Shown: positions 14,811 through 40,408, counted from the first letter of the stretch. The stretch is 64,000 bases of DNA from Candidatus Acidiferrales bacterium (GCA_035482455.1 DATHQS010000357.1:28654-92653); one strand, 5' to 3'. Made by a program: numbers and translations. Notes: a model not told the origin generated them from the sequence alone.

Positions 14811-14830
14811 GTGCAGTAAAAGTGCAGTAA
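14811..14830 (+). promoter_or_regulatory. tandem GTGCAGTAA repeats (putative integrase/excisionase arm-type sites, left arm)
   Basis: gtgcagtaaaagtgcagtaa lies 26 bp inside attL. The same 9-mer recurs near attR at 45239-45267. Confidence 0.5.
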
Positions 14831-14932
14831 ATTAACCCTCCAATACAAAGTTTTTTCTCATGCAATTCCCCTGTAAAACGAGGTGCGTTATTGAGGCGGT
14901 GTGGGGAACAGAACCGTTAAACCCAAAAAAAT

Positions 14933-15241: not shown

Positions 15242-15262
15242 ATTTACCTCCGGCGTTCATAT

Positions 15263-15640
15263 CTACTGCTTGGTAAAATTGACTGCAACGGCGGTAACGT
15301 GAGTTTTTAGCGAGGCCGCGAACCGCCGGTCAACCGCCTTCACAAAATTTAAGTCACATTTCTGAATCTTCCGCGCGACGGCTTGGAGGCCACTGCCCAA
15401 CAACGTGACTTCTGCCGCGGCAAAACAGATCACCAGCTTTTCGGGTGGTGCATCGGCATTCTTTTCCAGTGCCGGATTGGGAATTGTCTCCGCATACAGC
15501 AATTGCGCGTAGGGCAGAAGATAGCTGTGTGCGTCGTCGGCATACACGTTGAGCGATGCCACGTTCGGATCAATGCCGTAACAGGGATTGTCACGCGTGC
15601 TAGACACCGATGCTTCGTCCGGGTTGGGGTTTGTGTTCAT
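15263..15640 (-). CDS. hypothetical protein (downstream of the relaxase, overlaps its 3' end by 41 nt)
   Basis: 125-aa ORF with no recognisable motif. It is co-oriented with the relaxase. Confidence 0.4.
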   Translation of the reverse strand: MNTNPNPDEASVSSTRDNPCYGIDPNVASLNVYADDAHSYLLPYAQLLYAETIPNPALEKNADAPPEKLVICFAAAEVTLLGSGLQAVARKIQKCDLNFVKAVDRRFAASLKTHVTAVAVNFTKQ

Positions 15641-21963: not shown

Positions 21964-22068
21964 AACTATCAATTTTATTAATCATGCGCAAGGTTTTTCA
22001 AACTCTGCCGCGCCACTCCACCACATAGATTGACGCGCCGCAAATTCCCAAGCAAACTGCCACGCACA

Positions 22069-25000: not shown

Positions 25001-25386
25001 TCCGCACCAAGCTCGCCGCCGATGCCGTGCGTGAACGGGCCGTGGACCACACCGCCGGTCCCAATGAGCAAAAGGCCATGCGTCTGCTGGCTGCCGCGCA
25101 GGGGATGCCCAACGTCTCCGCTGCCGAAAAAGCCCTGCTCGTCGCCGCCCAGCACGCCATCCGCGTTGCCAAATTTCAAGATCTGTCGCGCAAGCTCAAC
25201 GCGCTCCAAAAAGCTGTCGTCAAAAAACCGGTCACCACCGCCGCGCTCCTGGACAAGCTTTTGGAGATCATTCGCTCATACCCGCTTGATGTGGCCGAAC
25301 CGGATGCCGATGCGTCCGAAACACCTGTCGTTGACCATCGGTTTATACCGCATATCATACTGTCGGAATCTTTCACCACGAAATGA
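22069..25386 (+). CDS. PLD (single HKD) nuclease domain fused to an SNF2-family helicase/ATPase
   Basis: LHAKLYIFLP...VITGSSNLTAAGLG (HKD/GSxN, about 22456-22560). SNF2 motifs LADVVGLGKTVVA, LIIIDEAHKFRN (about 23127-23160), LISATPLNNRPADIRNQ, STEVLAEGVNLHRAHVIVNYDTPWNSTRLMQRIGRVNRIGS. The stop overlaps the next start (ATGA at 25383-25386). Confidence 0.9.
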   Translation: MSKRFFTNEGENTLLKKFAGVFTHNPDIERFDALVGYLRASGYFALRPHLEKVPLIRIIVGIDVDTELARHHRKGLLMLGDADKTLSFVRAKLAEDVQGAPYRREIEEGIRQFVADVASKRVEIRAHSTKKLHAKLYIFLPTGFCEHKPGAVITGSSNLTAAGLGVEDAASNYEFNVVLHDYDEVVFAKNEFEKLWGEGVSVLPEAVKGVVRESYLREDLTPFELYIKFLIEYFGPAIDYDPNSERDMPKGRKALSYQGDAVNDGWLKLQKHGGFFLADVVGLGKTVVATRIAKKFYYHNGFPNHRSRILIITPPALRENWETEMEMFGLDDAVKIINNGSLHKIRDPEKYDLIIIDEAHKFRNDTADGYDLLQKLCKTRTKHRLPDDEFARKKVILISATPLNNRPADIRNQVLLFQDGKDSTVIGNLQHFFAQRIKEYQVATNPLKTPDRQVAHAAVARIYELIREQVVQPLTVRRTRTDLVEDKRWKADLDAQGIIFPKVEKPTPILYQLDDGLGVLYDRTIQLLAFPDSGGLTYNRYRAIAFLSTLELKQKYERADLVATQLARIMKTMLVKRLDSSFIAFKKSLGRFRDATQAMLTMFERGNIYIAPSLHVSDYILEDREDELIAAIAEASETDPTITACTPKDFKPEFLDGLKHDGKILDELVAAWEQVQADPKLDEFLSCLRGEGSRPNLLTKPFNETGKLVIFSEARDTTRYLTEKLNAAGFGPVLTVDSHNRKDEMPKVRANFDANVAIGDASNRRDDFHILISTEVLAEGVNLHRAHVIVNYDTPWNSTRLMQRIGRVNRIGSTAKAVHIFNFYPTTQVDDDIDLQRKAFLKLQAFHTALGEDSQIYSPDEEVDNFGLFDRAIEEERDERLRFLSELRDFKDANEDDFRRIRNLPLRARCGRCDATQTGHTLAFIRDDRRDAFYRIAAELQEIGFVEMARAFRAEVSESAAPLPATHHEQVLDALEDFRTKLAADAVRERAVDHTAGPNEQKAMRLLAAAQGMPNVSAAEKALLVAAQHAIRVAKFQDLSRKLNALQKAVVKKPVTTAALLDKLLEIIRSYPLDVAEPDADASETPVVDHRFIPHIILSESFTTK

Positions 25387-28300
25387 ATTTAGCCGACTGC
25401 CAGGCCCAGTTTCAAAAAAAGTATTCACTGGAAAACTGGCGCGTCCTGTTGCCGCAATTGTTGCCCGGCGTCGCGCTCTTTGCGCAACCCCAGGATTATC
25501 CGTTGACCAATGACCGTGAGCGTAGCATCGCCACTGCCCGCCGCCAGTTCGGCGCGGCCACGCTCGCCGATGGCAAGCGCATTGCTTTTTACGAGATTGA
25601 TGTCGCCGCCAAGGTGGACTTGCTCCGCAACCGCGTCGCCCTTCGCGAGATCGTCGCCCGCTGTATTGACGAAGTCAGCGCGCACACCGTGCTCGCGTTT
25701 TTTGTCCATCCCGACAAGCCCGTTTACCGCCTGACCTATGCCGCCAAGGAAAGTCGGGTCGGTGACGACCTCAAAATCCACACCGGACAGACCGCCACGC
25801 GCCGGTACACCTACGTGCTGGGGCCGGGTGAAAGGCGCCGCACCGCCGCGTTGCGGTTGACTGCGTTATCCGAAAAGCGCGACACGACCGGGCTGAAGGA
25901 GGTCACCGACGCCTTTTCCGTCGAGAAGATCAACCGCGAATTTTTCGACACTTACAAGTCGCACTACCAGAAATTTTGCGACCATCTGCTCGCTGGCGAC
26001 GCACCGGCCAAGGTTTTCAAACTGCCACTGCGGGGTCTGGCGGATGAAGCCCGCGACCACACGCTGAAGCCGGTGCGCGACTTCGTCAAAAAGCTGTTGG
26101 GCCGCCTTGTCTTTCTTCATTTCCTCCAGAAGAAAGGCTGGTTGGGTTGTCCCGCTAATGTGACCCCTTGGAAAAACGGTGATCCTGATTTTCTCCGCCA
26201 GCTTTACACCACCGCGCCCGTCACCGACCTGCAACGGTTCCATTCCCGCCGCCTCGTGCCATTGTTCTTTGACACGCTGAACCGGCGGCGAAAAGATGAT
26301 TTATTTTCCATCACCGGCACCCGCGTCCCGTATCTTAACGGCGGTTTGTTTGAGCGCGATTTTGACGGCGTGGAGCAGATTGATTTCCCCGCGGAATTGT
26401 TCCACGACGTGCTGGAATTTTTCGGCCAATACAATTTTACCATTGATGAGAACGATCCTGATGACCACGAGATCGGCATTGACCCCGAGATGCTCGGGCA
26501 CATCTTTGAAAACTTGCTGGAAGATAACAAGGACAAGGGCGCTTACTACACGCCCAAGGCCGTCGTCCAATACATGTGCCAGCAGAGCCTCATCCATGCG
26601 CTCATCGGCCATTTTCCAAGTGACCCCGTCGCCCGCACCGAAATCGAAAAGCTCATCCGCACCAAGGAACCCATTGATGCCCGTCAGGATTCCTGGCTCG
26701 CCCGGCATGCCACGCAGTTGACCAAGGTTCTTGAAGATCTTCGCATCTGCGACCCCGCCATTGGTTCCGGCGCGTTTCCCATCGGCCTGCTTCAGGAGAT
26801 TTATTGGACCAAGCTCGCCATAAATTCCGGCCTCGACCGCGCCAAGGCCAAGCGCGATATCATCCAAAATTCCATTTTTGGCGTGGATATTGACGCTGGC
26901 GCCGTGGAAATCGCCCGGTTGCGTTTCTGGTTGGCGCTCATCGTTGAGGAAAAGAGCCCCGTGCCGTTGCCCAACCTCGATTACAAGATCATGCAGGGTA
27001 ATTCCCTGCTGGAAAGTTTTGAGGGCATTGACCTGAGCAATCTTACTGGCAAACAGCGCAAAGCCATCCAGTTGATCGGCACGGAGCAGACGGAACTGGG
27101 CCTCAAGACCGTCTCCACCGAACTGACCATCGAGTTCGCCGAGGGCAAGCAAGCCGAGATCACCAGCCTCATCGGCGGCTACTTTGGTCAGGACGATCTG
27201 GAGCTGAAACAAAAGTTGCATGGCGAGATTGATGACCTCGTGCTTGGCCACATTGAATACAATCTGGATTTGCATGAGGAACGGATTGAGGCGGCGCTCG
27301 ATAATGCCCGCAAGGAACTCAAACGCAAGCAGGCACGCGCCCGTGGCTACGAACCTACCAAGCGGGAGGCCGGCCGCATTGCCGAACTGGAAGCACAACT
27401 GGCTGAGGTGGACCGCAAGCGGGCGGCACTGGCGGAATTGCAGGAAAAACCGGAACGACCATTCTTTCTCTGGCACCTGTATTTCCAAAATGTGTTTGCT
27501 CGCGGCGGGTTCGATATCGTCGTAGCCAATCCGCCTTACGTCCGGCACGAGGCAATCAAGGATCAAAAGGCCGCGTTGCAAGCCGCGCCTTACGAATGTT
27601 ACGACGGCTTCGCCGACCTGCTGGTTTATTTTTACGAGCGTTCGGTAAAACTACTGCGTCCCGGTGGCGTGCTGACTTTCATCACCTCAAATAAATTTTA
27701 CCGCGCCGGTTATGGCGAGAAACTGCGCGGTTTTCTTGCCCGTGAACTAACCCTGCACCGGCTGATTGATTTTGGCGACGCACCCGTGTTCGAGGCCATC
27801 GCCTATGCCTCCATTCTCGAAGGAACACGCGCCGCGCCGTCTACTGACGCCTCGGCACGGATTTACACTTGGGGAAAGGGAATGCCCCTCGACAGTATTG
27901 CCTCCGTAATTGGGTCGCACGGCCAGCCAATTCGCCAAGACGAGCTCAAGCCAGACGGCTGGCGGCTTGAATCACCAATAGTGCTTCGTCTTCTCGCCAA
28001 ACTCCGCGCAAACGGCACGCCGTTAGGTGAGTATGTGAAAGGGTGTTTGTATTATGGAATCAAGACCGGCCTCAACGCAGCATTTATTGTAGATCGCGCC
28101 ACGCGCGACCAGCTCATTGCCGAGCACTCCTCGTCGGCACAGCTTTTGAAGCCTTGGCTTAGGGGACAAGATATTGACCGCTGGCAGATTTCCCCCTCAG
28201 ACCTTTGGCTGATTTTTCCGCCCCGAGGAACGGACATCAACAAATACCCTGCTATCAAAGGCTATTTAAATAAATTTAAGGAACAACTTTCACCAGGAGT

Positions 28301-29570
28301 TGACGGTGGCCGAAAGCCTGGCGATTATGAATGGTTCGAGATACAAGACAATGTTGCATATTGGCGTGAGTTCAAAACGCCAAAAATTGTCTTCCCAGAT
28401 ATTGCCAAGAGTTCTGAATTTGCTTGGGACAGTGGTGGCCATTTTGTCGGCAACACCGGCTATATACTTCCAACGCAAGATAAGTGGCTGCTCGCTGTTC
28501 TCAACTCATCGGCAGTTTTCTGGTTTTACCTCAATGTTAGCAACTTCATCCGGGGCGGGTATGTGCGGTTTATTAGGCAATATGTTGAAACCATTCCCAT
28601 CCCCACCACGACCGCTGCGGACCATACGGAGTTAAGCGCCCTCGTTGACCATATCCTTACGGCGAAGCGCGCCGGAGACGAGGAGACGGTGCATCAGTTA
28701 GAACACGAAATTGACGCGCACGTTTTCCGGCTCTACGCCCTCACGCCGGAAGAGATAAAGCTGGTGCAGTCCGTCCATGTCGAATCGGTTTCCGACAACC
28801 CGAAGTCCAACCTGTTCAACCGCGAGCAGCCCGAACTCAAAGCGGTGTCACCTTACTTCACCAACGCTGATCGCACCGCAATTTACGACCGGGTACTGAC
28901 CGAACTCAAAGCGTCGTCCCCCTATTTCACCACCACCGCCATCACCCGCCGCGCACAGGAGTTGGATCCTGAAATCAACCTCGACTCTTTGGCTGTGTAT
29001 CTCTCTGGGGTTACGGCCAATGGTTTGGTTCATGATGCTGGTCGCGGCTGGTATTCCGGATTGAGCAATCCCGTGCCGCTGGATGCCAAGCCGGTCGTCA
29101 AACTCATCCGTGCCGTCGAAAAGGCGTTCCCGCTGCTGGAGTTCACCGTCTGGTCCACCGCGCAAATCAATCCCTGGATGCACCACCTGCTCGCTCAGCC
29201 TGTCACGTTCCTTTACGCCCCGGCGGACACCCTTGAATCCGTCGGCGACACCCTCCGTGAACAAGGCTGGGAAATCGCCCTCGACCCCGGCAAGAAGGAG
29301 GGATCGAAACTGGTTCGCCCCGGCGAGAAAATGCTGGTCTTGCGCCCCACCCATTCCAAACAGCCCGCCCCGGCTGGGCGGCAGGCCAAAATCGAGCAAA
29401 TCTTGGTGGATTTGCAGCTCGAAGCCGGGCGCTTGGCGCTCATGGATACCTCCGAAGCCCAAGGTGTCATTCGGGCAATTTTGGGCCAATATCTTGTGCA
29501 AGTGGCTGAAATGAAGACCTATGCAGACTTTAGAACACTTAAGTTAAATGATTTAGAAGCACTTAACTAA
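25383..29570 (+). CDS. 1395-aa N6-adenine DNA methyltransferase (Eco57I/type IIG-like, TaqI-type C-terminal specificity domain) with an extra C-terminal ~250-aa AbiEi-like module
   Basis: Motif I ICDPAIGSGAFPIG, motif IV VVANPPYVRHE (NPPY at 27528-27539), TRD-like GTPLGEYVKGCLYYGIKTGLNAAFIVD. The C-terminal tail (about 28800-29567) contains FTTTAITRRAQEL..SLAVYLSGVTANGLVHDAGRGWYS and IEQILVDLQLE. Confidence 0.85.
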   Translation: MNLADCQAQFQKKYSLENWRVLLPQLLPGVALFAQPQDYPLTNDRERSIATARRQFGAATLADGKRIAFYEIDVAAKVDLLRNRVALREIVARCIDEVSAHTVLAFFVHPDKPVYRLTYAAKESRVGDDLKIHTGQTATRRYTYVLGPGERRRTAALRLTALSEKRDTTGLKEVTDAFSVEKINREFFDTYKSHYQKFCDHLLAGDAPAKVFKLPLRGLADEARDHTLKPVRDFVKKLLGRLVFLHFLQKKGWLGCPANVTPWKNGDPDFLRQLYTTAPVTDLQRFHSRRLVPLFFDTLNRRRKDDLFSITGTRVPYLNGGLFERDFDGVEQIDFPAELFHDVLEFFGQYNFTIDENDPDDHEIGIDPEMLGHIFENLLEDNKDKGAYYTPKAVVQYMCQQSLIHALIGHFPSDPVARTEIEKLIRTKEPIDARQDSWLARHATQLTKVLEDLRICDPAIGSGAFPIGLLQEIYWTKLAINSGLDRAKAKRDIIQNSIFGVDIDAGAVEIARLRFWLALIVEEKSPVPLPNLDYKIMQGNSLLESFEGIDLSNLTGKQRKAIQLIGTEQTELGLKTVSTELTIEFAEGKQAEITSLIGGYFGQDDLELKQKLHGEIDDLVLGHIEYNLDLHEERIEAALDNARKELKRKQARARGYEPTKREAGRIAELEAQLAEVDRKRAALAELQEKPERPFFLWHLYFQNVFARGGFDIVVANPPYVRHEAIKDQKAALQAAPYECYDGFADLLVYFYERSVKLLRPGGVLTFITSNKFYRAGYGEKLRGFLARELTLHRLIDFGDAPVFEAIAYASILEGTRAAPSTDASARIYTWGKGMPLDSIASVIGSHGQPIRQDELKPDGWRLESPIVLRLLAKLRANGTPLGEYVKGCLYYGIKTGLNAAFIVDRATRDQLIAEHSSSAQLLKPWLRGQDIDRWQISPSDLWLIFPPRGTDINKYPAIKGYLNKFKEQLSPGVDGGRKPGDYEWFEIQDNVAYWREFKTPKIVFPDIAKSSEFAWDSGGHFVGNTGYILPTQDKWLLAVLNSSAVFWFYLNVSNFIRGGYVRFIRQYVETIPIPTTTAADHTELSALVDHILTAKRAGDEETVHQLEHEIDAHVFRLYALTPEEIKLVQSVHVESVSDNPKSNLFNREQPELKAVSPYFTNADRTAIYDRVLTELKASSPYFTTTAITRRAQELDPEINLDSLAVYLSGVTANGLVHDAGRGWYSGLSNPVPLDAKPVVKLIRAVEKAFPLLEFTVWSTAQINPWMHHLLAQPVTFLYAPADTLESVGDTLREQGWEIALDPGKKEGSKLVRPGEKMLVLRPTHSKQPAPAGRQAKIEQILVDLQLEAGRLALMDTSEAQGVIRAILGQYLVQVAEMKTYADFRTLKLNDLEALN

Positions 29571-29616
29571 ATCCAATTAGTTTAATAATTTGGAGATGAT
29601 TAATAGGTAAAAATCT

Positions 29617-30726
29617 ATGTTTTCACCGGGGCTATTGACGGCGGGGGCACTGCAAAAGCAGGCGAAAACTCTGGGCGGTTGCAACCAGGATATCTTGGAA
29701 CGCAGCCTTTACGCCCTCACCCTTCTGGGGCATCTGGCAGATACCAAAATCCCCTTCATTTTTAAGGGCGGCACCAGCCTGCTCCTGCACCTGCCCGAAG
29801 TGCGCCGTCTTTCGATTGATATTGATATCGTCTGCGGTGAAAAGCCGGCGGTGATCGATGCGGCAGTGGCGCAGATTGGCAAAAAAACACCGTTCATCCG
29901 GTCCGAGGAACACGTTCGAGATCATTTTATCAAGCTGCCGCAGCGCCGGCACTTCAAGTTTTTTTATCGTTCTGCGATCGGCGGCCAGGAAGTTCCCATC
30001 TTGTTGGATGTGGTGGAGGAGTCGCGGATCCACCACCAGCTGACAACCCGCCCGATTCAAACGTCATTCATCAAGCCGGACCGCGAGATCATGGTTCAGC
30101 TCCCCACCTTGGAGAGCTTGTTGGGGGACAAGTTGACGGCTTTCGCGCCCACGACCGTCGGTGTGCCGCTACGTAAATCTGATGGTCAGCCCGGCGATGT
30201 CATGCAGGTCACCAAACAGTTGTTCGACATCGGCGTGTTGTTCGGGGCGGCCACAAATTTCAATGAAGTCGCCTCCACCTATGACGCCGTACAGAGACTG
30301 GAATCGGAATATCGTCCGACCAAACCCAGCCGCGAGGCTTCGCTGGCGGATACCTTTCAGGCATGCCTGGCGACGACCGCATCAAAGACACGCGACGTGG
30401 CGGCTTACGCGGATGCGCCGCTGTTGCAGAGCGGATTCCAAAGTTTGCGCGGGCATTTGACGTGGCCCGGATTTGCGGCGACTCAAGAACCGAAGCGTAT
30501 CATTGCCGCTCGAACCGCTGTTTTGGTTGCTCATCTGCGTGCTGGTGTTCCATTTGATTTTGCCGCCCATCGCTTCACCGGCAGCACCGAACAAATCGAG
30601 ACCGTCCGTGGTCTCACACTAAACGGGACGTCATTGGCTTGGCTAGACGGAATGCGGGCCGTCAATCCGGAAGCTTATTATTATTGGCATCGTGCCATCC
30701 AGCTAACCCCGCCTCCGGCCGCTTGA
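29617..30726 (+). CDS. AbiEii/AbiGii-family nucleotidyltransferase (type IV TA toxin-like)
   Basis: IPFIFKGGTSLLLHLPEVRRLSIDIDIVC (about 29755-29840) matches the KGGTAL...R.S.DlD signature of DUF1814/AbiEii NTases. The gene starts 46 bp after the methyltransferase stop. Confidence 0.75.
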   Translation: MFSPGLLTAGALQKQAKTLGGCNQDILERSLYALTLLGHLADTKIPFIFKGGTSLLLHLPEVRRLSIDIDIVCGEKPAVIDAAVAQIGKKTPFIRSEEHVRDHFIKLPQRRHFKFFYRSAIGGQEVPILLDVVEESRIHHQLTTRPIQTSFIKPDREIMVQLPTLESLLGDKLTAFAPTTVGVPLRKSDGQPGDVMQVTKQLFDIGVLFGAATNFNEVASTYDAVQRLESEYRPTKPSREASLADTFQACLATTASKTRDVAAYADAPLLQSGFQSLRGHLTWPGFAATQEPKRIIAARTAVLVAHLRAGVPFDFAAHRFTGSTEQIETVRGLTLNGTSLAWLDGMRAVNPEAYYYWHRAIQLTPPPAA

Positions 30727-30854
30727 TGCTGAGCATGACAACGACAACAATGACGATGATGATGACCACCACCACCACCACCGCCGCCGCCGCCACCAAG
30801 ACGATAACGAACAGGAGTCAGTGTGCGGTAACAATTTCAAAAATAAGGGATTAA
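30726..30854 (+). CDS. 42-codon Thr/Met/Ala-rich mini-ORF bridging two genes (leader-peptide-like)
   Basis: MLSMTTTTMTMMMTTTTTTAAAATKTITNRSQCAVTISKIRD. Its ATG overlaps the AbiEii stop (tgATG) and its TAA lies 4 nt before the next ATG at 30859. It contains (ACC)6 and (GCC)4 runs. Whether it is translated is unproven. Confidence 0.35.
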   Translation: MLSMTTTTMTMMMTTTTTTAAAATKTITNRSQCAVTISKIRD

Positions 30855-30858
30855 AATC

Positions 30859-33180
30859 ATGTTCACCGTCAAGGCTACGAAAGAGTTCATCGGCGGATTA
30901 GAAAAACTTCGGGACGCCGAAGCGCGGAAAGTTAAGGCGGCAATGGTAGATGCAAGTGTGTCGGGCAAAATTTATTTGCCACCGTCGCGCCATGGGGAAG
31001 ATCGTATTCCCAATGTGGAAAAATATATGGTCAGCGACGGTGACCGGTTGGTGGTGCAGATGATTGATCCCAAAAACAAGGTTCGCATTTTTTTATTCGT
31101 TGGCACTCACGACGAAACCCAAAGATGGTTGGATAGTCATGGTGGCTATCAGTGGGTGGAAAAAAAGTCAGACTCAAAAATTGAGTTTGTCCAAGTGACC
31201 GATGCTATGCCTCAAATACCTCAATCGAACACGCCGGCACCGGTCGCCAAACCGGACCCAGCTTCATGCCCAGTGAATGCGATGGAAACGCCACCACATA
31301 AGCCCGGCCCGCTGCTGGGATTTTTGGAATCAGAAGATTGGGGTGGCTTGGCGCTCCGAAACGAGACCAAGGATTTCCTCACCACCGTGGATCAGCAATT
31401 CATGCTGACCCGCGAGCAGGAGGTCTTCGATAAATTGCCAACCTTGGAACCCGACAAGCGGGCCAATCTGATTTATGACATGCTCTGCCTGGCCGCGAAG
31501 GGTGATTATGAGGGTGCGAAACAACGGCTGGCGCTGCATAAAAACGAAGCTCGCGTGGTCGAGGGTGAGCAGTTGGCGGCCGCCATGGAGCAGCCAATTA
31601 ACAGCGAGGACATAATCACTTTCGACGACGCAAACACCCTTCAAGAATTTGTGAAAAAGGGTGGGACCATCTCGGAATGGATGTATTTTCTCCATCCCAG
31701 CCAGAGCGATTTGGTAAAACGTGATTTTAATGGCCCAGCCCGACTTCGTGGCATATCCGGCAGCGGAAAGACTTGTGTGCTACTGCATCGTGCTCGCCGC
31801 CTTACCAAGCTCTATCATGAGCCGGTTCTAGTGGTTACCCTCACTGAAAGTATGCGGAAACTTTTGGATTCTCTTCTCGACGATCTGTGTGGTGTGGAGC
31901 GGCATTTGATTGCCGTGGCCACAGTTAATTCTACGATCCGGGCCGTGCTTGAATCGTCGTATGGTGAGCGGATGGAAATCATTCGGCTCACGGATTCACA
32001 AGAAGACAAGCTGCTGGCGGACAGTGTGAAGTTTATTCGCAGCAATGCTGGTTTTGCCGAAACACCGTTCCGTCATTTTAATTCGATTGATCTGAATCGC
32101 TTTATCCGGGACGAATTTGCATTTGTTCGCAGTCGCCTGATTCCGGCCGATTACCAGAAGTATATCGAAACGGATACCTTCCCGAGACGAGGACGGGGTC
32201 TGGCGTTAATCCGAAAAGCCCGTGAAGTGGTTTTGCAAGGATTATACTATTTTGAAACCGAACTGGATAAGCTGAAGGCTGCGGACGGTGAGGCCATCAC
32301 GCAGGCTGCGCGCAGCCTTGTTGCCGACCCTAACAACAAAACGAAACGTTACCGTTCGGTCTTGGTTGACGAGGTTCAGGATTTGAGCCAGTTGGAACTG
32401 GAAATCATGGCCAACCTGCTGACCAATCAGGGTGAGCCTGTCCGGTCAGTCCCAAATGGATTTTTCCTGGTGGGTGACGGCACGCAGACAATCTACCGCC
32501 GCGGATTTCGGTTGGTGAATGCCGGGGTTGCGATTATCGGGCGAAGTTATTATCTGAAGAAGAATTATCGCAACACCATGGAAATCCTTCAGGCGGGCTA
32601 CGCTTTGGTTTCACACTATGAATTTGCCGACTCTGATGAAAGCGAACTGGTTCGGCCATTGGAACCTGACTATGCGTCACGACGCGGTGCCAAACCGACA
32701 TTGGTTAAATGCCGCGATACGGATGATGAAGCCGCCTATGTTGTGGCCACTATTTGTTTGCTCTGCGCCAATTCAGTCAAACCTGGACAGATTTGTGTCA
32801 TTGGTTGCAATAAAACAGTTCGGGATGCCGTAAAACAGCTCTTGAGTGATACCGAGCTGCCCTTTATTGAGCTGCGTGAGGACGTTAAAGTGGATAGTCA
32901 GAACATCAAGATTTCCACGATTGAATCCGCCAAGGGGCATGAGTTTCACACAGTTTTCATCGCCGGCCTGGTCGAGGGAGTGATGCCACCCAAGGGCACT
33001 GATGAGGCCGAAATTCCCCGTGAAGTTGCACGCCTTTATGTCGCCATGACCAGGGCACAGGATTTTCTGCATCTTTCTTATTCCTTTACACCGGCCTTCC
33101 CAGCCTCGCGTTTTTTGCTCCACTTTCAAGAACATTGCGAAGAAAAAGCATATTTTAACGGCCAACTTCGCGATCTATAG
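30859..33180 (+). CDS. UvrD/Rep-like SF1 helicase with an N-terminal ~280-aa extension (first ~95 aa RelE/ParE-fold-like)
   Basis: Walker A LRGISGSGKTCVLLHRA (about 31750), Walker B SVLVDEVQDLSQLE, NYRNT, and C-terminal STIESAKGHEFHTVFIAGL...LYVAMTRAQDFLHLSY. The N-terminus ends ...YMVSDGDRLVVQMIDPKNKVRIFLFVGTHDETQRWL. Confidence 0.8.
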   Translation: MFTVKATKEFIGGLEKLRDAEARKVKAAMVDASVSGKIYLPPSRHGEDRIPNVEKYMVSDGDRLVVQMIDPKNKVRIFLFVGTHDETQRWLDSHGGYQWVEKKSDSKIEFVQVTDAMPQIPQSNTPAPVAKPDPASCPVNAMETPPHKPGPLLGFLESEDWGGLALRNETKDFLTTVDQQFMLTREQEVFDKLPTLEPDKRANLIYDMLCLAAKGDYEGAKQRLALHKNEARVVEGEQLAAAMEQPINSEDIITFDDANTLQEFVKKGGTISEWMYFLHPSQSDLVKRDFNGPARLRGISGSGKTCVLLHRARRLTKLYHEPVLVVTLTESMRKLLDSLLDDLCGVERHLIAVATVNSTIRAVLESSYGERMEIIRLTDSQEDKLLADSVKFIRSNAGFAETPFRHFNSIDLNRFIRDEFAFVRSRLIPADYQKYIETDTFPRRGRGLALIRKAREVVLQGLYYFETELDKLKAADGEAITQAARSLVADPNNKTKRYRSVLVDEVQDLSQLELEIMANLLTNQGEPVRSVPNGFFLVGDGTQTIYRRGFRLVNAGVAIIGRSYYLKKNYRNTMEILQAGYALVSHYEFADSDESELVRPLEPDYASRRGAKPTLVKCRDTDDEAAYVVATICLLCANSVKPGQICVIGCNKTVRDAVKQLLSDTELPFIELREDVKVDSQNIKISTIESAKGHEFHTVFIAGLVEGVMPPKGTDEAEIPREVARLYVAMTRAQDFLHLSYSFTPAFPASRFLLHFQEHCEEKAYFNGQLRDL

Positions 33181-33205
33181 CCCACCACCAAAGCCAAACT
33201 AATCT

Positions 33206-34516
33206 ATGCAACGTAACGCTGCCATCACGCATAAGACCACCACCAAAAGTATTTTGGACCTCCAAAACCTTTTTGACCATGGTCACCTGAATCTGGAACC
33301 GGGGTTTCAGCGTCAATCCGTCTGGAACGAGAGGGATCGCGCCAAGTTGATAGACAGCATTTTGCGCAATTATCCGTTGCCCGCCATTTTTCTCTATAAG
33401 CGCGAAGAGGAAGGCAACCTGGTTTTTGACGTGATCGATGGCAAACAGCGGCTCGAATCCATTTTCATGTTCATGGGCGCGATGCGGGGGAAGTATTGGA
33501 CCCGTACGCAGTTGCCCGACATGGAATCTGTGGAATGGATTGATTGGGCGCATTTGCGCCGACGTGGCAAACAGCACCTCATCACCGGCTATGAAATTCC
33601 CGTCATCGAGGTGGATGGGGAGATGGGTGACATCGTTAGTGTGTTCGTCCGGATCAATTCCACTGGTAAGGCTCTGACGCAACAGGAGAAACGGCACGCC
33701 CGCTATTGCGACAGTCAGTTTTTGAAGGAGGCTTCCCGTTTGGCCAACCGGTTCGAGCATTATTTTACCACGAACGGTATTTTCAGCAGCGGCCAACTGA
33801 GCCGGATGAAGCACGTCGAGTTCATATGCGAACTCATGCTGTCACTGGTGCAGGGCGATGTGTTGAACAAAAAGACCGCGCTGGACCGGGTCATGGCCAC
33901 GTCCTCATTTGACGGCCGGCAGCTGAACAAAGCCTCGCGCATGGTCACCACCACGCTGAACCGTATCCGCCGCATGTTTCCGCACCTCAAGGCGACGCGG
34001 CTGCGCCAGGTAACAGATTTTTACAGCTTGGCGGTGTTGATTGGGAAATTTGAATCGGAGGGGATGATCCTCACCGACCGGCGCCGCAATCGCCTCGCAT
34101 GGGATCTGTTGCAAGCCTTCGTGACCCGGGTAGATGAGGTACGGGAGTTGCAACGCAAGGCCAAGGGGGCGCGGCCGGATCAGGAGCTTTACCGGGATTA
34201 TTTGCTGACGGTGTCACAGATGACCGACGACGTAAGCCAGCGCCGTAAGCGCGAGCTCATTCTGCGCGGGATATTGGAAAGCCTGTTCACCAAGCGGGAT
34301 GGCCAACGCGGGTTCACTGCCGAACAGCGCCGCATCATTTGGAATACGTCTGTCAACCGTACCTGCTCCCATCCGGGCTGCAATCGCAAGCTATCTTGGG
34401 ACGATTTTACAATCGACCATATCAATCCGCACAGCAAAGGTGGCCGGAGCCAGTTGGAAAATGCGGCGCTCATGTGCCGGGAGCACAATTCCGCCAAGGG
34501 CAACCGCCGCAGATAA
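33206..34516 (+). CDS. DUF262 (ParB/GmrSD-N-like) domain fused to a C-terminal HNH nuclease
   Basis: LEPGFQRQSVWNERDRAKLIDSILRNYPLPAIFLY...VIDGKQRLESI (DGQQR-type motif about 33436-33450). C-terminal CSHPGCNRKLSWDDFTIDHINPHSKGGRSQLENAALMCREHNSAKGNR (HNH). Confidence 0.85.
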   Translation: MQRNAAITHKTTTKSILDLQNLFDHGHLNLEPGFQRQSVWNERDRAKLIDSILRNYPLPAIFLYKREEEGNLVFDVIDGKQRLESIFMFMGAMRGKYWTRTQLPDMESVEWIDWAHLRRRGKQHLITGYEIPVIEVDGEMGDIVSVFVRINSTGKALTQQEKRHARYCDSQFLKEASRLANRFEHYFTTNGIFSSGQLSRMKHVEFICELMLSLVQGDVLNKKTALDRVMATSSFDGRQLNKASRMVTTTLNRIRRMFPHLKATRLRQVTDFYSLAVLIGKFESEGMILTDRRRNRLAWDLLQAFVTRVDEVRELQRKAKGARPDQELYRDYLLTVSQMTDDVSQRRKRELILRGILESLFTKRDGQRGFTAEQRRIIWNTSVNRTCSHPGCNRKLSWDDFTIDHINPHSKGGRSQLENAALMCREHNSAKGNRRR

Positions 34517-34743
34517 GAAGCCGGCGAGAAGGGCATTCTCATGCCGCCCACCTTACCGGTCGCGGGGTTGTTGGGGATTGCTTTTTTCATAAAACTGCAC
34601 GAGAAAAGTGGCGGCGTGACAGATTTAGGTCGTTTTTTTTGGAAAACTGCGGGAATCAAGTTTCTTAAACTGCTTAACATCAAACGCTTGTAGACATAGC
34701 GCTTTTTCCGGCGTTCCTTGATAAAGGATAGGTTTAATATACT

Positions 34744-36261
34744 ATGGGCAGCGTGACATTACCCTTGGATTTAAAGCAGTATATCGGCCCTGAAGAGATT
34801 CTGACTTCCAGCCAGCTGGTGGAACGGGTCACCGCCAATAAAATGGCACCGCCTAGTGCACGTCAGCTGATCCGCCGTAATTCCGAAGCTCAAGGTATCT
34901 GGCGGTCCCAACACCTTGTTTTGCCCGGAGGCGGTCGGTTGTTTTGTCATGCTGGATTTAGACGGAATGACAGGTTTTTTACTACCATTTTGCCGGTCCT
35001 CGATGAGTTCCGGCCCGGAATCGCCCGGCTGGTTCGTGCTGTGATGGCTGAAAGCGTTGTTCTATATCCCCGTGCCGAACAGCTGTTGGCCTCACCGGTG
35101 ATTCCAGACAATTCAAGTTACCCCTATTCCGGTCATGACATCGATGCTCTGACCGAACTGGGTTTGGGACGTCTGGAAGCCGATGACAGCGTCCTGAAAC
35201 GCTTCTCTGCTGACAGCCTTGATCTCGCCACCTCACACGCTCTGGCCATCCGGTCCAACGCAAGGTTTTTGGCTGAAGTCGCCTTAGCTAGAATCTTGTT
35301 TGAACAATTGCGGCATCAAAACGTGATCTCCTGGAATAAAAAGGCCATGCCGGATAAGGCCGCCAGCCTGGTCAGTTTTAATAATTTCCTTTTTTCCGCC
35401 ACGGGTTTTTCGTGGTTGCGGCCGATGTTGCGTTTTAACAAATCAGAAAAGCCCAAGGCGACTCCGGCCGTGCTGGATGTCATCGCCAAGCTTTGTGAGG
35501 TTTATGATGTCGATTCTTTCGCTGAGCGGATTCAGCGCGCCGGGCAGAATAAAAATTCCAAATTGGCCATTTTAGGGATTATTGCCGCATTTGATTTTAC
35601 CAAAGCAGCCTGGAAAAAGGCCAAGGCAGAGGGGTATGTCGCGATCAATCTCCGGCAACATTTTGGAGACGCGGCGTTTGAAGCATTGGTGGTGGTTCAA
35701 GAAATATTGAAGAATGTTGCCGGCGAGCCGGCAAAAGCAAAAGACGAGGATTATCAAAAATTGGCCGACACGTTGGAGCAGCTGAAATGCAATCCGTATG
35801 TGGTGGACTTGAGATCGCTGGGCTTTGAATCTGTTTCTGGACTGCTCCTGCGAACCAAGGGCTATGAAAATGTTCAGCTGAATCTTAAGGTTGCCCACGA
35901 CTCCGGCGAAGAACGGGAGGTCGATGTTTGCGGCGATCGGAACGGTCGGTCGGAACTGTTCGTGGTTGAATGTAAGGCCGAATCATCAAACAAAATGCTG
36001 GCCGGTGAGTTCGTCCAAAAATTTTATACGGAGACCGTTCCCGCCTATCTGAAATCTATGTCAGCTGGTGGCCCTAAAGAATGTCGGGCGGAAATCTGGA
36101 CCACTGGCCAGGTTGGCGATGAGGCTAAATCGGCATTGTCTCAAATCAAAATGAGCGCACTGATTAAGCCCGCGATGCTCGGTCACGAGGACGTGAAAAG
36201 TTTGGTTCCGAAGTCGCTGGGTTCCTGCAAGCGCCTTTTGGAGGCAATTTCAGCCCACTGA
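34744..36261 (+). CDS. 505-aa hypothetical protein with C-terminal PD-(D/E)xK-like nuclease motif
   Basis: No recognisable N-terminal domain. The C-terminus EEREVDVCGDRNGRSELFVVECKAESS (about 35917-35980) fits D-x(n)-E-x-K. Confidence 0.55.
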   Translation: MGSVTLPLDLKQYIGPEEILTSSQLVERVTANKMAPPSARQLIRRNSEAQGIWRSQHLVLPGGGRLFCHAGFRRNDRFFTTILPVLDEFRPGIARLVRAVMAESVVLYPRAEQLLASPVIPDNSSYPYSGHDIDALTELGLGRLEADDSVLKRFSADSLDLATSHALAIRSNARFLAEVALARILFEQLRHQNVISWNKKAMPDKAASLVSFNNFLFSATGFSWLRPMLRFNKSEKPKATPAVLDVIAKLCEVYDVDSFAERIQRAGQNKNSKLAILGIIAAFDFTKAAWKKAKAEGYVAINLRQHFGDAAFEALVVVQEILKNVAGEPAKAKDEDYQKLADTLEQLKCNPYVVDLRSLGFESVSGLLLRTKGYENVQLNLKVAHDSGEEREVDVCGDRNGRSELFVVECKAESSNKMLAGEFVQKFYTETVPAYLKSMSAGGPKECRAEIWTTGQVGDEAKSALSQIKMSALIKPAMLGHEDVKSLVPKSLGSCKRLLEAISAH

Positions 36262-36284
36262 GTCGCGGTCTGGTTTTGGGTCAA

Positions 36285-36316
36285 GCTGCCCCTGCCACCG
36301 GCAGCATTTCTTTTCC
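36285..36316 (+). terminator. weak rho-independent terminator candidate after the 505-aa gene
   Basis: gctgcc-cctgccacc-ggcagc followed by atttcttttcc. Confidence 0.35.
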
Positions 36317-36500
36317 AACGAGTTACCTGCTGGGTGGCGGCATCGTGGAAAAACTTGGGATTGAACGCTTTATGCCCTGATTCGATTTTTTGGCGCGGCT
36401 CAATTATCTTTGAATGGCTATGGTGGGTTGGACAGCCTTTGTCCAACCGGCTTTGAGATGATTGTCAAAAAGCTTTAAAAGCACGAAATGCGGCAATAGA

Positions 36501-37538
36501 ATGAAAACCATGACAAAATCGGACCCAGACACGGCGAACTTATTTTCCGAGCACGGAACTGGGACGACGATTCTGCTGAGTGACGATATTTTCACGATGG
36601 TGCAAAACCAGCGGCTGATTGTGGACGGCTTTGAAAAAGGCTGCCTGCAATCGACGTCATATGACTTTCGTATTGGGAAAAAGGCTGTTGTTGGCGGGCA
36701 GGGCTGCGAGGTGGATTTGGAGTCCAAGCCTTTGGTTATCGATCCAGGGTCATACGCGGGCGTCATCTCCTATGAAAAAGTCAAATTGCCAAACAACGTT
36801 TTCGCCCAGATCGGATCGAAACGGAAATTCTCTTACGATGGTCTGATTCTCCTCACGGGCTCTGTAATTGATCCGGGATATGAAGGCTATTTATTGTTCG
36901 GCCTTTATAACGCCTCAACTAAAAAGGTCGTTTTGCCCAAGGGAACCAAAATTTGCAACGTGATTTTTACACGGCTTCCGCGGGATGTGAGTCCGGTGTC
37001 TCCTGACCCGTATCTCCTGATGGGAAATTGTCCGCCTGATTTTTTAACCCGGATGGCCAATGTCGAAGTTCTCCCCTGGAATAAAATCAGCGAGGAAGTG
37101 CGGCGTATCCAGGAACTCGCGCAGGCCATCCTCGACTTGAAAGTTCAATACAACGACGTTCTGGAGCCGATCAAAGACTTGACCAAAAATGTCAACAAGG
37201 TGAATTCAGATGTTGCGCTACTGACTGAACAAATCAGGGCGGTTGGAACACAAGTGAGCAAGCTTGATCAGTTCAGTGAGAAAAACGCCCAGCTCGTCAA
37301 CGAAATCGCCGTCAATGTTAAGACGCTCAGCACCAAGGTTGGCGACCAGGACAAAGAATTGAGGGACGTCAGCACCAAGCTTGGAAGTTATGGCCTTCTT
37401 GTGAAAATTGCTTGGGCCATCGGATTGGTGATGGCGGGCATTTTGATAAAACAATATCTGGATAAACCAGCAGTCAGTCCAAAGGAAGCGCCAAAAGTTT
37501 CGGCTCCTGCCTCAGCTCCCGTCCCGTCGAAACCATGA
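36501..37538 (+). CDS. dCTP deaminase/dUTPase-fold domain fused to a coiled coil and a C-terminal transmembrane anchor
   Basis: STSYDFRIG, VIDPGSYAGVISYEKVKLP, GSVIDPGYEGYLLFGLYNASTKKVVLPKGTKICNVIF (about 36864-36960) align by eye with Dcd/Dut motif III. A heptad-like region follows (NVNKVNSDVALLTEQIRAVGTQVSKLDQFSEKNAQLVNEIAVNVKTL), then a TM helix LLVKIAWAIGLVMAGILIKQYL (about 37393-37460) and a Pro/Ala/Ser tail. Confidence 0.7.
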   Translation: MKTMTKSDPDTANLFSEHGTGTTILLSDDIFTMVQNQRLIVDGFEKGCLQSTSYDFRIGKKAVVGGQGCEVDLESKPLVIDPGSYAGVISYEKVKLPNNVFAQIGSKRKFSYDGLILLTGSVIDPGYEGYLLFGLYNASTKKVVLPKGTKICNVIFTRLPRDVSPVSPDPYLLMGNCPPDFLTRMANVEVLPWNKISEEVRRIQELAQAILDLKVQYNDVLEPIKDLTKNVNKVNSDVALLTEQIRAVGTQVSKLDQFSEKNAQLVNEIAVNVKTLSTKVGDQDKELRDVSTKLGSYGLLVKIAWAIGLVMAGILIKQYLDKPAVSPKEAPKVSAPASAPVPSKP

Positions 37539-37650
37539 ATCAATGCGTTTGGTGTCCCTGCTCGAATACTGGCCCAAGCAGCCTCCATCGTCGGGATGGC
37601 TTGGATGTCATTGACACTGGCCCACCAATTCCCTGACCCTGGCCTTGTCC

Positions 37651-38631
37651 ATGCGCTATTGGTGGGTCAATCATAAGCAGACCTTCAAACACGAATTCGA
37701 AGGTCATTATATTTGGTCGCCCAAACGCAAGCGCGACGGCACCCGCAACCGTTTTTACGATTTTCTCAGGGAGGTCACTCCAGGTGATGTTGTTTTTTCC
37801 TACGCTTCCGGCGAGATTCGTGGCGCTGGCTTCGCCAAATCCTGCTGTTACACCTGCCCGCGCCCGGCTGAATTTGGCCATATCGGCGAGGCTTGGGACG
37901 TCGTCGGGTGGCGGGTCGATGTCGAGTTTCATCCTTTTACCAACCGCCCCCGTCCGAAGCAGCATCTGTCCCTGCTTCGTCCGTTATTGGAACGCGAAAA
38001 ATATTCCCCGTTGCAACTGACTGGCGACGGACTGCAACACATCTACCTCACCTCAATTTCGGAAACCGTTGCCCAGGTCATCCTTGGTTTGGCCGGTCCC
38101 GAAGCTCGCGTGTTCGATGGCTCCATGTTGAATGATGCTGCCGCTCCCTTGACGGAGCGTGAACTCACCGGCCAGCAGGAGTGGGAGGATATCGAGCAGC
38201 GTCGTATCATCGACGCTGAAATTCCCAACACCACGCGCCAATCGCTGATTAAGGCTCGTATCGGGCAGGGGCTGTTCAAAGAACGCGTCACCCGCATTGA
38301 ACGTTCCTGCCGGATTACCTTCGTGGACAATCCCGCCCACTTAATCGGCAGTCACATCAAACCTTGGCGTGAATCCACGAATGAAGAACGCCTTGCAGGC
38401 AGTAACGGGTTGCTGCTCACGCCCACGGCTGACCATCTTTTTGACCGGGGCTTTATCAGCTTCGAAGATAGCGGCGAAGTATTAATTTCCCCGGTTGCGG
38501 ATGTCACCTCTCTGAAACGGATGGGGCTTGATCCTCAACGCCCGCCTCGGCCGCAGGCTTTTAATACCGATCAGAAATATTTCCTCAACCATCATCGTCG
38601 GGAAATATTTCTCGCCGCCGCCAACTCCTGA
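37651..38631 (+). CDS. PUA/EVE-like N-terminal domain fused to an HNH_2-type nuclease (type IV, modification-dependent restriction enzyme candidate)
   Basis: N-terminus MRYWWVNHKQTFKHEFEGHYIWSPKRKRDGTRNRFYDFLREVTPGDVVFSY. C-terminus CRITFVDNPAHLIGSHIKPWRESTNEERLAGSNGLLLTPTADHLFDRGFISF (HNH_2 pattern). Confidence 0.65.
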   Translation: MRYWWVNHKQTFKHEFEGHYIWSPKRKRDGTRNRFYDFLREVTPGDVVFSYASGEIRGAGFAKSCCYTCPRPAEFGHIGEAWDVVGWRVDVEFHPFTNRPRPKQHLSLLRPLLEREKYSPLQLTGDGLQHIYLTSISETVAQVILGLAGPEARVFDGSMLNDAAAPLTERELTGQQEWEDIEQRRIIDAEIPNTTRQSLIKARIGQGLFKERVTRIERSCRITFVDNPAHLIGSHIKPWRESTNEERLAGSNGLLLTPTADHLFDRGFISFEDSGEVLISPVADVTSLKRMGLDPQRPPRPQAFNTDQKYFLNHHRREIFLAAANS

Positions 38632-38648
38632 TTCTGGCCTTGGATTCT

Positions 38649-39524
38649 TCACAACGATTCCGCCATGGCGATGGTTTCAAACTCCGAACAGATTTCCGGA
38701 TGGTTGGCGTTCAGATACCGGACGACCTTCCCGTTCTTGAGCAGGTTTTTGACATAGGTTTGCGCCGTTTGCAGGGTGAACATGTTTTCCGTGTAGGTAT
38801 CCGTGACGGCTTTTAATTCCCGTTCCAGCGATTCCATTTCACTTTCCATCCGGGCGATGTCCTCCGCCGACATGCCGGCTTTTCGCTTCGGCTCATCCGG
38901 GTTCACTAACTGATGCTTGGGCGTGCCCAGGACCATGGCCTCGGCGTAGCCGACAACGTAGTTGTTCATCGCGACCATCATTTCCGCCATTTCAATCTGC
39001 CGGTTTCCATTCACGCTCTTGAACAGCCTCAGGGCTTTCGGACAGATGTTTTTGTCTTTCAATAATTCGGCCGCGTCCGGATGAATCCCTTTGAGCAGGT
39101 TGATGGAGGCTTGCACCACCCGCAGCGGCATGTTCAAAACCACGGCCAGCCGCTCCGGGCTGACGCCGTTGTTCACAGCTTTGACGATCATCTTGTGCTC
39201 CTGGATCGGCGGCAACCGGCTAATGCGGGCGTTGTAGGTGTAGCACTCGTCATCCGTGGCGATGATGCAGTCGGCTTCGGTTTTGCCCAAATCTTTCAGG
39301 GCAAAATAACGGAGGTGCCCGTTTTTCAGCATATACTTTCCCGGCGCATCTTTTTGCGGATAGACCACCAACGGTTCCACCAGACCCATGTCTGGAATGG
39401 AGCCAAGAATCGCCTTGAACCGATAGGTCTCCTTATCCACCTCTTTAACTAGGCGCATTGGTAGGATGTCATCCAGCGGCAACTGGATTTTCCGCAGTTC
39501 AAAGGCAATTTTCGGTTCACTCAT
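38649..39524 (-). CDS. ParB/Srx N-terminal-domain protein (ParB-like 1)
   Basis: GLVEPLVVYPQKDAPGKYMLKNGHLRYFALKDLG (ParB box with GxxR). The start overlaps the upstream gene's stop (ATGA at 39521-39524). Confidence 0.75.
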   Translation of the reverse strand: MSEPKIAFELRKIQLPLDDILPMRLVKEVDKETYRFKAILGSIPDMGLVEPLVVYPQKDAPGKYMLKNGHLRYFALKDLGKTEADCIIATDDECYTYNARISRLPPIQEHKMIVKAVNNGVSPERLAVVLNMPLRVVQASINLLKGIHPDAAELLKDKNICPKALRLFKSVNGNRQIEMAEMMVAMNNYVVGYAEAMVLGTPKHQLVNPDEPKRKAGMSAEDIARMESEMESLERELKAVTDTYTENMFTLQTAQTYVKNLLKNGKVVRYLNANHPEICSEFETIAMAESL

Positions 39525-40408
39525 GCTGTTTGTTTGATTTGGGGTGAAAGTTTGACCGACAAATATTTTGGCATCGTCGCCAGGCCTTCGGCTCGTAACA
39601 GCGTGCCGAAATTTTCATCCGCCAGCAGCTTGTTGAAGCCCGTCACAATAAAACCCAGCTTGGCATCACACACCTTCGCCTTTTTGATCATCAACTTCTG
39701 TCGCTGGCTCTCCTTGCGGTACGAATTGACCATGCTTTCCATGCTGGTCTTGGGTTTGGCGTCGGATGACTTGCCGCCACGCTGCTTGCCAATCAGTCGC
39801 CGGCTCTCGATTAGCCCTTTGACGTATTTCAGGGATTTGTAGTCGAGCTGCTTTTCCTCGTAGGCTTTCAGCAGTTCGCGCTGGGTCTCCAGCGTGTCGG
39901 TCTTGGCAATGTCCACCGCGATCCACAGGGGAATCTTTCCGGTGACGGCGGCCTCCAGCAACCGCTCCTCGCCCGCGTTGCTCAGGCTCGAATAGGCCCG
40001 GACCAGGCTGTCGCTCACGTCCAACTTTTCGCTGATTTCTTTGATTGTATTGCCCAAAGCCTGCAACCGTTCGATTTCCCGGATCAAATCCATTGGCTTT
40101 GGATAACGCCGGGCGATGTTTTCCACGAGGCTGCGGACCAGCAGTTCCTGCTTTGTAATTTCCGAAACAATGGCCGGTATTTCTTTATGCCCGAGCGCCC
40201 GGAAGGCTTCCATCCGTCCCTGTCCGCAAATTAAATCATATCCGGCCACTTCATGCTCGCTCGCGTGGCGGCGGCTGACTTGAATCGGCATTTTCAGGCC
40301 AACATTTCTGATGCTCTTGATGATGATCTCAAACTTTTTCGGGTCTCGATGACGTGGATTGACCACGCGGATTTTCTCAATGCGTATCAATTCGATTACC
40401 TCACTCAT
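39521..40408 (-). CDS. ParB/Srx N-terminal-domain protein (ParB-like 2) with HTH
   Basis: IRVVNPRHRDPKKFEIIIKSIRNVGLKMPIQV...YDLICGQGRMEAFRALGHKEIPAIV. The preferred ATG at 40408 overlaps the recombinase stop (ATGA at 40405-40408). Confidence 0.75.
   Translation of the reverse strand: MSEVIELIRIEKIRVVNPRHRDPKKFEIIIKSIRNVGLKMPIQVSRRHASEHEVAGYDLICGQGRMEAFRALGHKEIPAIVSEITKQELLVRSLVENIARRYPKPMDLIREIERLQALGNTIKEISEKLDVSDSLVRAYSSLSNAGEERLLEAAVTGKIPLWIAVDIAKTDTLETQRELLKAYEEKQLDYKSLKYVKGLIESRRLIGKQRGGKSSDAKPKTSMESMVNSYRKESQRQKLMIKKAKVCDAKLGFIVTGFNKLLADENFGTLLRAEGLATMPKYLSVKLSPQIKQTA

Follow-up and report, generated by a model that had tools for sequence, protein, structure and literature searches.

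Type II ARMADA systems were described in a 2025 preprint on helicases of the YprA family (Bell et al. 2025, bioRxiv, PMC12458937). They consist of four genes in the strict order ArmA-ArmB-ArmC-ArmD, of which the first product is BrxHII-like, the second PglX-like and the third YprA-like, and the fourth, ArmD (E. coli WP_000218177.1), is a fusion of RelE with a GajB-like UvrD helicase. All four genes are essential, a K266A substitution in the Walker A motif of ArmD abolishes protection, and the defence is non-abortive (PMC12458937). Here we analyze a 64,000-nucleotide stretch of DNA from Candidatus Acidiferrales bacterium (GCA_035482455.1 DATHQS010000357.1:28654-92653), called the window below, and in particular the interval 30859-34516. 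Open reading frame (ORF) calling places two genes there on the same strand, separated by a gap of 25 nucleotides: gene 1 (30859-33180) encodes a helicase of 773 residues with a RelE-like N-terminal domain, and gene 2 (33206-34516) a DUF262-HNH protein of 436 residues. A preliminary description of this DNA had taken them for a two-gene defence pair of helicase and nuclease with a domain combination that it did not recognise, and had proposed that a failure of the genes to co-occur elsewhere would speak against the pair. This description is supported in part. Its domain calls are right, and the GmrSD-like gene that it placed 25 nucleotides downstream of the helicase agrees with our ORF coordinates. 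However, the pairing is not supported because the genes fail to co-occur, the fusion of RelE with a GajB-like UvrD helicase had already been published as ArmD (PMC12458937), and DUF262-HNH proteins are abundant. We consider it reasonably probable that the interval consists of two separate defence cassettes, each mobile on its own, within the variable cargo of an integrative mobilizable element. The best reading of the adjacency of the two genes is then cassette shuffling in a defence island, and not a dedicated partnership.

The features of the two cassettes are the following.

30825-30858, plus strand: conserved 34-nucleotide leader at the 5' edge of the helicase cassette, travelling with its gene (in blastn, similarity to the loci L086 and L005 begins at 30825/30826 and stops at the helicase stop codon)
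30859-33180, plus strand: ArmD-like helicase gene, 773 residues (ORF; Pfam UvrD-helicase and UvrD_C; about 245 homologues; 28% identity to an ArmD-like protein)
30859-31203, plus strand: RelE/YoeB-fold domain, residues 1-115, with conserved E47, R49, K55, R63, H84 and W90 (AlphaFold2, Foldseek against the PDB, profile alignment, conservation)
31204-31305, plus strand: Pro/Thr/Gln-rich disordered linker, residues 116-149 (predicted local distance difference test score, pLDDT, below 50 in both AlphaFold2 models)
31306-31683, plus strand: helical domain, residues 150-275, partly shared with ArmD (AlphaFold2 helices at residues 158-275; in BLASTP, similarity to the ArmD-like protein sets in at residue 177)
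31684-33180, plus strand: motor core of superfamily 1A (SF1A; UvrD/PcrA/Rep-like), residue 276 onward (invariant motifs; Foldseek; PADLOC GajB, 9.5e-29)
31750-31773, plus strand: Walker A motif, residues 298-305
32368-32382, plus strand: Walker B motif, DEVQD
33184-33205, plus strand: short leader at the 5' edge of the second cassette, travelling with the DUF262-HNH gene (in blastn, 33184-34509 matches 6621-7946 of L086, where it lies upstream of the helicase)
33206-34516, plus strand: protein with DUF262, a helical middle and HNH, 436 residues, a variant of the GmrSD family (Pfam, PADLOC, motifs)
33263-33706, plus strand: DUF262 (GmrSD_N), residues 20-167 (Pfam, 9.6e-26)
34376-34507, plus strand: HNH domain PF01844, residues 391-434 (Pfam, 3.7e-8)

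Comparison with sister elements by blastn resolved two sharp-edged cassettes, 30825-33183 and 33184-34509, which are found downstream of an AbiEii toxin gene in either order or singly. The order of the helicase and DUF262-HNH cassettes is swapped in L086. The L005 locus has the same backbone (HKD-SNF2 helicase, methyltransferase-AbiEi, AbiEii, and further on ParB, ParB and serine recombinase) and carries an 87%-identical helicase followed by a NOV_C protein, and in L094 a 96%-identical DUF262-HNH gene stands directly after AbiEii without the helicase. Other orthologues of the helicase are followed by SIR2 or SduA_C, one is preceded by Mrr, and further ones have unannotated small ORFs, toxin-antitoxin, mobile-element or housekeeping genes (ExbD, GcvP) as neighbours, with no nuclease nearby. 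The element itself is integrated next to a tRNA-Gly(CCC) gene (14712-14785), beside the chromosomal glnD, and encodes a TrwC relaxase, two ParB/RepB proteins and a large serine recombinase (regions 15600-18323 and 38649-41952). The ParB-ParB-recombinase backbone is also present in a metagenome-assembled genome of the Opitutaceae (L042).

The co-occurrence analysis called for in the preliminary description gave the same picture from both sides. None of 80 metagenomic loci with a DUF262-HNH homologue (41-96% identity) carried the helicase, at least 2.4 kb being available upstream in 36 and downstream in 32 of them. The contexts of the helicase were collected from 80 genome loci and 10 context look-ups, corresponding to 86 distinct contexts. 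A Pfam census of their 84 immediate same-strand neighbours yielded DUF499 and ResIII four times each and BrxL and GmrSD_N three times each, no domain exceeding four, and all-versus-all clustering of neighbours gave no recurrent neighbour for the close helicase family. The only other place where the DUF262-HNH gene was found beside the helicase is the 92%-identical P0004 lineage, in which it lies upstream, i.e. the order is reversed. The two families also differ in their distribution: DUF262-HNH exceeds the close helicase clade about tenfold in abundance (2138 matches at E <= 1e-5) and is also much better conserved, its best 120 matches keeping identities of 73% or more across phyla. We considered whether a nuclease or SIR2 effector gene is a constant companion of the helicase in the close clade and rejected this, such a gene being present in five contexts (DUF262-HNH twice, GmrSD, NOV_C and SIR2) and absent from four further ones. 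For annotation, the lesson is that tight adjacency within a defence island is not to be read as a functional pair.

Gene 1 encodes a complete UvrD-type SF1A helicase behind a RelE-type cap. The motifs GSGKT (residues 301-305), DEVQD (504-508), NYRNT (569-573) and VAMTRA (728-733) are all found in the translation. They lie far from the N-terminus, as the preliminary description had noted. The core begins at about residue 276. They are invariant or nearly so among 64 aligned homologues, as are GDxxQ, YRNT (570-573) and TIESAKGHEF. The UvrD-helicase, AAA_19 and UvrD_C domains of Pfam match across residues 280-742, with no Pfam match on residues 1-279. The complete set of motor motifs (Q, I, II, III, IV, V and VI) and the 1A/2A fold place the protein with UvrD, PcrA and Rep, which are also matched by Foldseek with the full helicase model at E values of about 1e-22 (6e-23 for UvrD). 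The best PADLOC matches to the motor core are models of GajB of the Gabija system (9.5e-29), the term GajB-like being also that of Bell et al. for ArmD. In contrast to gene 1, GajB has no RelE domain, and the PADLOC matches cover the core motifs only. When the nine genes from 25383 to 40453 were scanned with PADLOC, no GajA (OLD-family ATPase-TOPRIM) was detected. At E <= 1e-10 the helicase has about 245 homologues (38-92% identity), of which almost all of the 120 listed are full-length. They are named 'ATP-dependent helicase' or '3'-5' exonuclease' by NCBI. With only two relatives on viral contigs, the helicase does not count as a typical phage gene. In P0014, the RelE domain and the helicase seemed to be naturally separate (ORFs of 105 and 649 residues), but a frameshift in the contig accounts for this.

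The preliminary description had proposed a RelE/ParE-like N-terminal cap, from a string that corresponds to residues 56-91 of the helicase, and had suggested structure prediction and a Foldseek search, which recovered a fold of the RelE/ParE superfamily. The AlphaFold2 model of residues 1-290, built with 31 homologues, has a mean pLDDT of 80, with 81-95 for residues 1-110 and less than 50 for residues 116-143. The full-length model is consistent with it (pLDDT 85, predicted template modelling score 0.71, disorder at residues 116-149). The top 50 Foldseek matches of the N-terminal domain in the PDB are all RelE, YoeB, YafQ, HigB and ParE toxins or RelE-fold proteins such as Cami1, with target template modelling (TM) scores up to 0.79 across entire toxins of 85-90 residues and a best E value of 1.6e-4. 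Pfam gave nothing significant on the isolated domain and nine short relatives, the best match being ParE_toxin at E 0.071 on one relative, but the top PDB sequence match of a profile of 41 diverse N-terminal domains is E. coli RelE (E 0.002). In the profile alignment, K55, R63, H84 and W90 correspond to K52, R61, R81 and Y87 of E. coli RelE, which, together with K54, we take to be its catalytic residues. The position of K54 is not retained, being Met in this helicase and Asp in most relatives. The conserved Glu-x-Arg formed by E47 and R49 is presumably reminiscent of the catalytic Glu of YoeB. All six residues (E47, R49, K55, R63, H84 and W90) are retained in 185-193 of 195 family domains, including 87 remote members with other architectures.

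The number of family members recovered depended on the search method: a word-indexed search with the N-terminal 290 residues gave three fragments and an exhaustive HMMER search 135 matches. In the latter, the RelE-like domain is found also on coiled-coil proteins of 425-515 residues, on a UDG-superfamily protein and as the C-terminal part of a Ser/Thr protein kinase (P0164, P0207, P0167 and related proteins), so that it looks like a module shuffled widely between proteins. Such mobility combined with strong selection fits an enzyme better than a degenerate scaffold, and the RelE-type RNase domain of the helicase is probably active, judging from residue conservation and the predicted structure. 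The domain has the BECR fold in common with the RelE, YoeB and YafQ toxins (target TM-scores 0.7-0.79) but differs from them by its fusion to a helicase, by the absence of an antitoxin gene, by an additional C-terminal beta-hairpin (residues 97-112) and by the K54 position. No antitoxin gene was seen on either side of the helicase: the upstream gap of 132 nucleotides contains only a low-complexity ORF of 71 codons over a triplet repeat, and the DUF262-HNH gene lies downstream.

As comparators for ArmD we used the genes in ArmD position of four-gene loci of ARMADA II type on E. coli and Klebsiella plasmids, standing in for WP_000218177.1. The ArmD-like protein of the Klebsiella plasmid locus (L174; 704 residues) has 28% identity to the window helicase over residues 177-746 (BLASTP, E 8e-44), and the copy on E. 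coli plasmid pLAO8 (L175) 27.6% (E 1.8e-42). The N-terminal domain of ArmD aligns with the profile of the helicase N-terminal domains with an hhalign probability of 91.5%. Both proteins have a three-part design, in which a RelE-like domain at the N-terminus is followed by helical sequence and then by an SF1 helicase of GajB/UvrD type, and their N-terminal domains share a ...HD(E/D)xxxW motif. In contrast to ArmD, the window helicase is longer (773 versus 704 residues), it is not preceded by a YprA-like ArmC, its close relatives are solo or beside many different genes, and the HGExR and K55 motifs of its family are not evident in the ArmD sequence. Against E. coli ArmD, the true ArmD of a Burkholderia locus (L056) scores 562 bits and the window helicase family about 133. 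The window helicase is a paralogue and not an orthologue of ArmD, and lies outside any ARMADA locus. In the L056 locus (Burkholderia sp. H160, 6854-16049), a bona fide ARMADA II ArmC-ArmD pair is convergent to a RelE-UvrD helicase of the extended branch, 83 nucleotides away, so that two paralogous RelE-helicases stand side by side.

More distant relatives of the helicase (26-31% identity, 850-1150 residues, with C-terminal extensions) often come directly after other systems, namely type III restriction-modification (R-M) res genes (four loci, at 14-16 nucleotides), BREX PglZ-BrxL (four loci) and DUF499/DUF1156 (five loci). RelE-UvrD helicases so constitute a superfamily of at least three branches, often but not always at the end of methylation-based defence operons. 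The window helicase would then be a member of a larger sister family of ArmD that is not tied to ARMADA and whose RelE-type site is under strong purifying selection. The family of about 770 residues, alongside which the wider set with C-terminal extensions exists, would be absent from PADLOC 2.0.

We can propose that the ATP-driven SF1 motor works on foreign DNA or on replication intermediates, with the tethered RelE-type domain acting on RNA, most likely on ribosome-bound mRNA as RelE and YoeB do. The motor would be the sensor of foreign DNA. The RelE-type domain could be the effector, or could couple the helicase to translating ribosomes, and the protein may act by itself or, in the way of ArmD within ARMADA, plug into methylation-based systems as an accessory. 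It is possible, though we advance this tentatively, that the RelE-UvrD proteins of about 770 residues form a stand-alone, single-gene defence family distinct from ArmD, in which detection of phage DNA by the motor would release a tethered, catalytically competent RelE/YoeB-type ribosome-dependent mRNase, or alternatively a portable booster for type I and III R-M, BREX, DUF499 and ARMADA systems. If the booster reading is true, the RelE-like domain would be a new, widely shuffled effector module that is found also on coiled-coil, UDG-like and kinase proteins. The RelE-like domain of ArmD has so far only been noticed in the literature and ARMADA is non-abortive, so that the role of a translation-toxin fold on a DNA helicase is in question. 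A single travelling cassette makes a simple test case for the gating of a RelE-type RNase by a helicase.

Gene 2 is, as the preliminary description had it, a DUF262 protein in which an HNH nuclease replaces DUF1524: Pfam detects GmrSD_N and PF01844 and has no match for GmrSD_C/DUF1524 in this gene. The translation contains GFQRQSVW, IDGKQRL, FVRINSTG and DH...N...HN, and its HNH is Cys-rich. Like GmrSD, BrxU and SspE, the protein presents the DUF262 motifs QRxxxW, DGxQR and FxxxN, a helical middle and a C-terminal His-Me-finger nuclease, and its family is located in defence islands or embedded in R-M operons. It differs from them in that the nuclease is a PF01844 HNH with a Cys4-type zinc ribbon and not DUF1524, and in its size (436 versus roughly 600 residues). 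In 12 of the 80 loci the direct neighbour of the gene is a type I HsdM methylase gene, a position inside R-M operons that solitary GmrSD-like genes typically take. Homology with GmrSD, BrxU and SspE suggests, as the simplest case, that gene 2 encodes a self-contained type IV-like enzyme. The DUF262 domain (a ParB-like NTPase) and the helical, DNA-binding middle would sense modified DNA, and the C-terminal zinc-ribbon HNH would cut it, making the protein a solo type IV-like restriction enzyme. Homologues at 73-100% identity are encountered in Acidobacteriota, Nitrospira, Bradyrhizobium, Pirellulales and Elusimicrobia, which indicates a recent, wide and horizontal spread; an identical protein (P0255) is recorded by NCBI from a metagenome-assembled genome of 'Candidatus Acidoferrales bacterium'.

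The region directly upstream of the helicase offers another possible partner for it. Three genes lie there.

22030-25386, plus strand: HKD+SNF2 helicase, DrmD/BrxHII-like (Pfam, PADLOC)
25383-29570, plus strand: PglX/type IIG-like methyltransferase with a C-terminal AbiEi-like domain, 1395 residues (Eco57I and TaqI_C; PADLOC)
29617-30726, plus strand: AbiEii toxin gene (PADLOC, 1.4e-81)

The C-terminus of the methyltransferase (residues 1203-1385) is an AbiEi-like antitoxin domain, DUF6577 (PADLOC AbiEi, 2.7e-25). The fusion of an antitoxin to an R-M-type enzyme, followed by AbiEii, is unusual and recurs in L005, L086 and L094.

These genes could form, with the helicase as terminal component, a YprA-less restriction system of ARMADA or DISARM type (HKD-SNF2, PglX-like methyltransferase and possibly AbiE), to which DUF262-HNH would be unrelated. 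The succession of SNF2, methyltransferase, AbiEii and helicase is common to the window, L005 and L086, and would recall the essential ArmD at the end of its strict gene order. The leader of the helicase cassette measures only 34 nucleotides, and the positions of distant relatives after type III res, BREX PglZ-BrxL and DUF499/DUF1156 are joined by that of a close relative after a type I R-M operon. Nevertheless, we find this arrangement rather unlikely. The window has no YprA-like ArmC: a phmmer search with the pLAO8 ArmC against all six-frame ORFs of the window gave no homologue, and AbiEii occupies the position where ArmC would be. The SNF2 protein and the methyltransferase resemble ArmA and ArmB only in a generic, domain-level manner, over short stretches (E 1e-10 and 1e-12), and the bit scores given above separate the helicase family from true ArmD. 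L094 and L172 possess the methyltransferase and AbiEii and no helicase in the retrieved sequence, that of L172 ending inside the DUF262-HNH gene. Most close orthologues of the helicase have neither methyltransferase nor SNF2 nearby, and some are located among housekeeping genes.

A dedicated two-gene sensor-effector system in the manner of Gabija, Hachiman or Menshen, with DUF262 as sensor, the ATPase as motor and HNH and RelE as effectors, appears improbable in view of the 0/80 and 3/84 counts, of the sister elements that hold one gene without the other, of the NOV_C, SIR2, SduA_C, Mrr or absent neighbours of the orthologues, and of the unequal abundance and conservation of the two families. 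Several observations weigh nonetheless on the side of such a pair and against two independent cassettes. The genes are on the same strand 25 nucleotides apart, and they are probably co-transcribed, as their leaders are only 22-34 nucleotides long; a promoter/terminator scan did no better than on shuffled sequence and is uninformative on operon structure. The P0004 element keeps both genes adjacent, 47 nucleotides apart in reversed order. An 83%-identical helicase is followed 38 nucleotides later by a canonical GmrSD, and a distant relative (L031) has a GmrSD 88 nucleotides upstream, so that DUF262 proteins neighbour the helicase superfamily in 4 of 87 contexts by raw count. The Menshen system (NsnABC/PtuXYZ) deserves attention here, as the best PADLOC match of gene 2 is its sensor NsnA (2.6e-31 over residues 6-259) and as a DUF262 sensor, an ATPase and a BECR-fold RNase are able to work together in Menshen (PMC12065111, PMC11980606). 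However, only the NsnA-like part is present in the locus by Pfam and PADLOC, the flanks being the SF1 helicase and a Mrr-like protein of 505 residues. There is neither the NsnB ABC-ATPase nor NsnC, the ATPase is a SF1 helicase with a fused BECR domain, and gene 2 has its own HNH. A further point against the proposed function of the helicase cassette is that ARMADA II, the sole tested system with such a helicase, is non-abortive (PMC12458937), which argues against simple RelE-mediated suicide.

It is very improbable that the RelE-like domain has lost catalysis and serves as an adaptor (for example for binding of ribosome, RNA or protein, or for oligomerisation) in a specialised DNA repair or replication helicase without a defence role: the lost K54 equivalent, the missing antitoxin gene, the non-abortive ARMADA and the NCBI names would fit such a protein, but the six conserved residues are near-invariant over very different architectures, the neighbours overwhelmingly belong to defence or to mobile elements, the gene is itself mobile as a cassette, and the multidomain RelE-bearing defence protein HEC-07 is experimentally validated.

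Other features of the element surround the two mobile defence cassettes. Just after AbiEii lies a triplet repeat, ACC x 11 (30765-30798, within low-complexity sequence at about 30730-30800), flanked by GAT, GAC and GCC triplets. It is longer in the sister locus L086 (about 6450-6640) and is located where the variable cassettes begin. This repeat could be a recombination-prone junction for cassette exchange. Downstream of the DUF262-HNH gene, the cargo region contains two further genes of nuclease type. The 505-residue protein (34744-36261) has a weak Mrr_cat match and no PADLOC match, and a HNH_2 protein of 328 residues (37645-38631), whose N-terminal half is unassigned, matches weakly with phosphorothioate-DNA-dependent restriction enzymes. 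Further on, at 50767-56366, three consecutive same-strand ORFs of 538, 826 and 500 residues, without Pfam match at E <= 0.001, might together make up a further uncharacterised system of this element. Finally, the 36462-37538 gene encodes a protein of dCTP-deaminase/dUTPase fold (Pfam DCD, 2.2e-16) that is extended at its C-terminus by a long coiled coil and has a hydrophobic tail. This extension is unusual, and the gene may serve in defence by depleting nucleotides.

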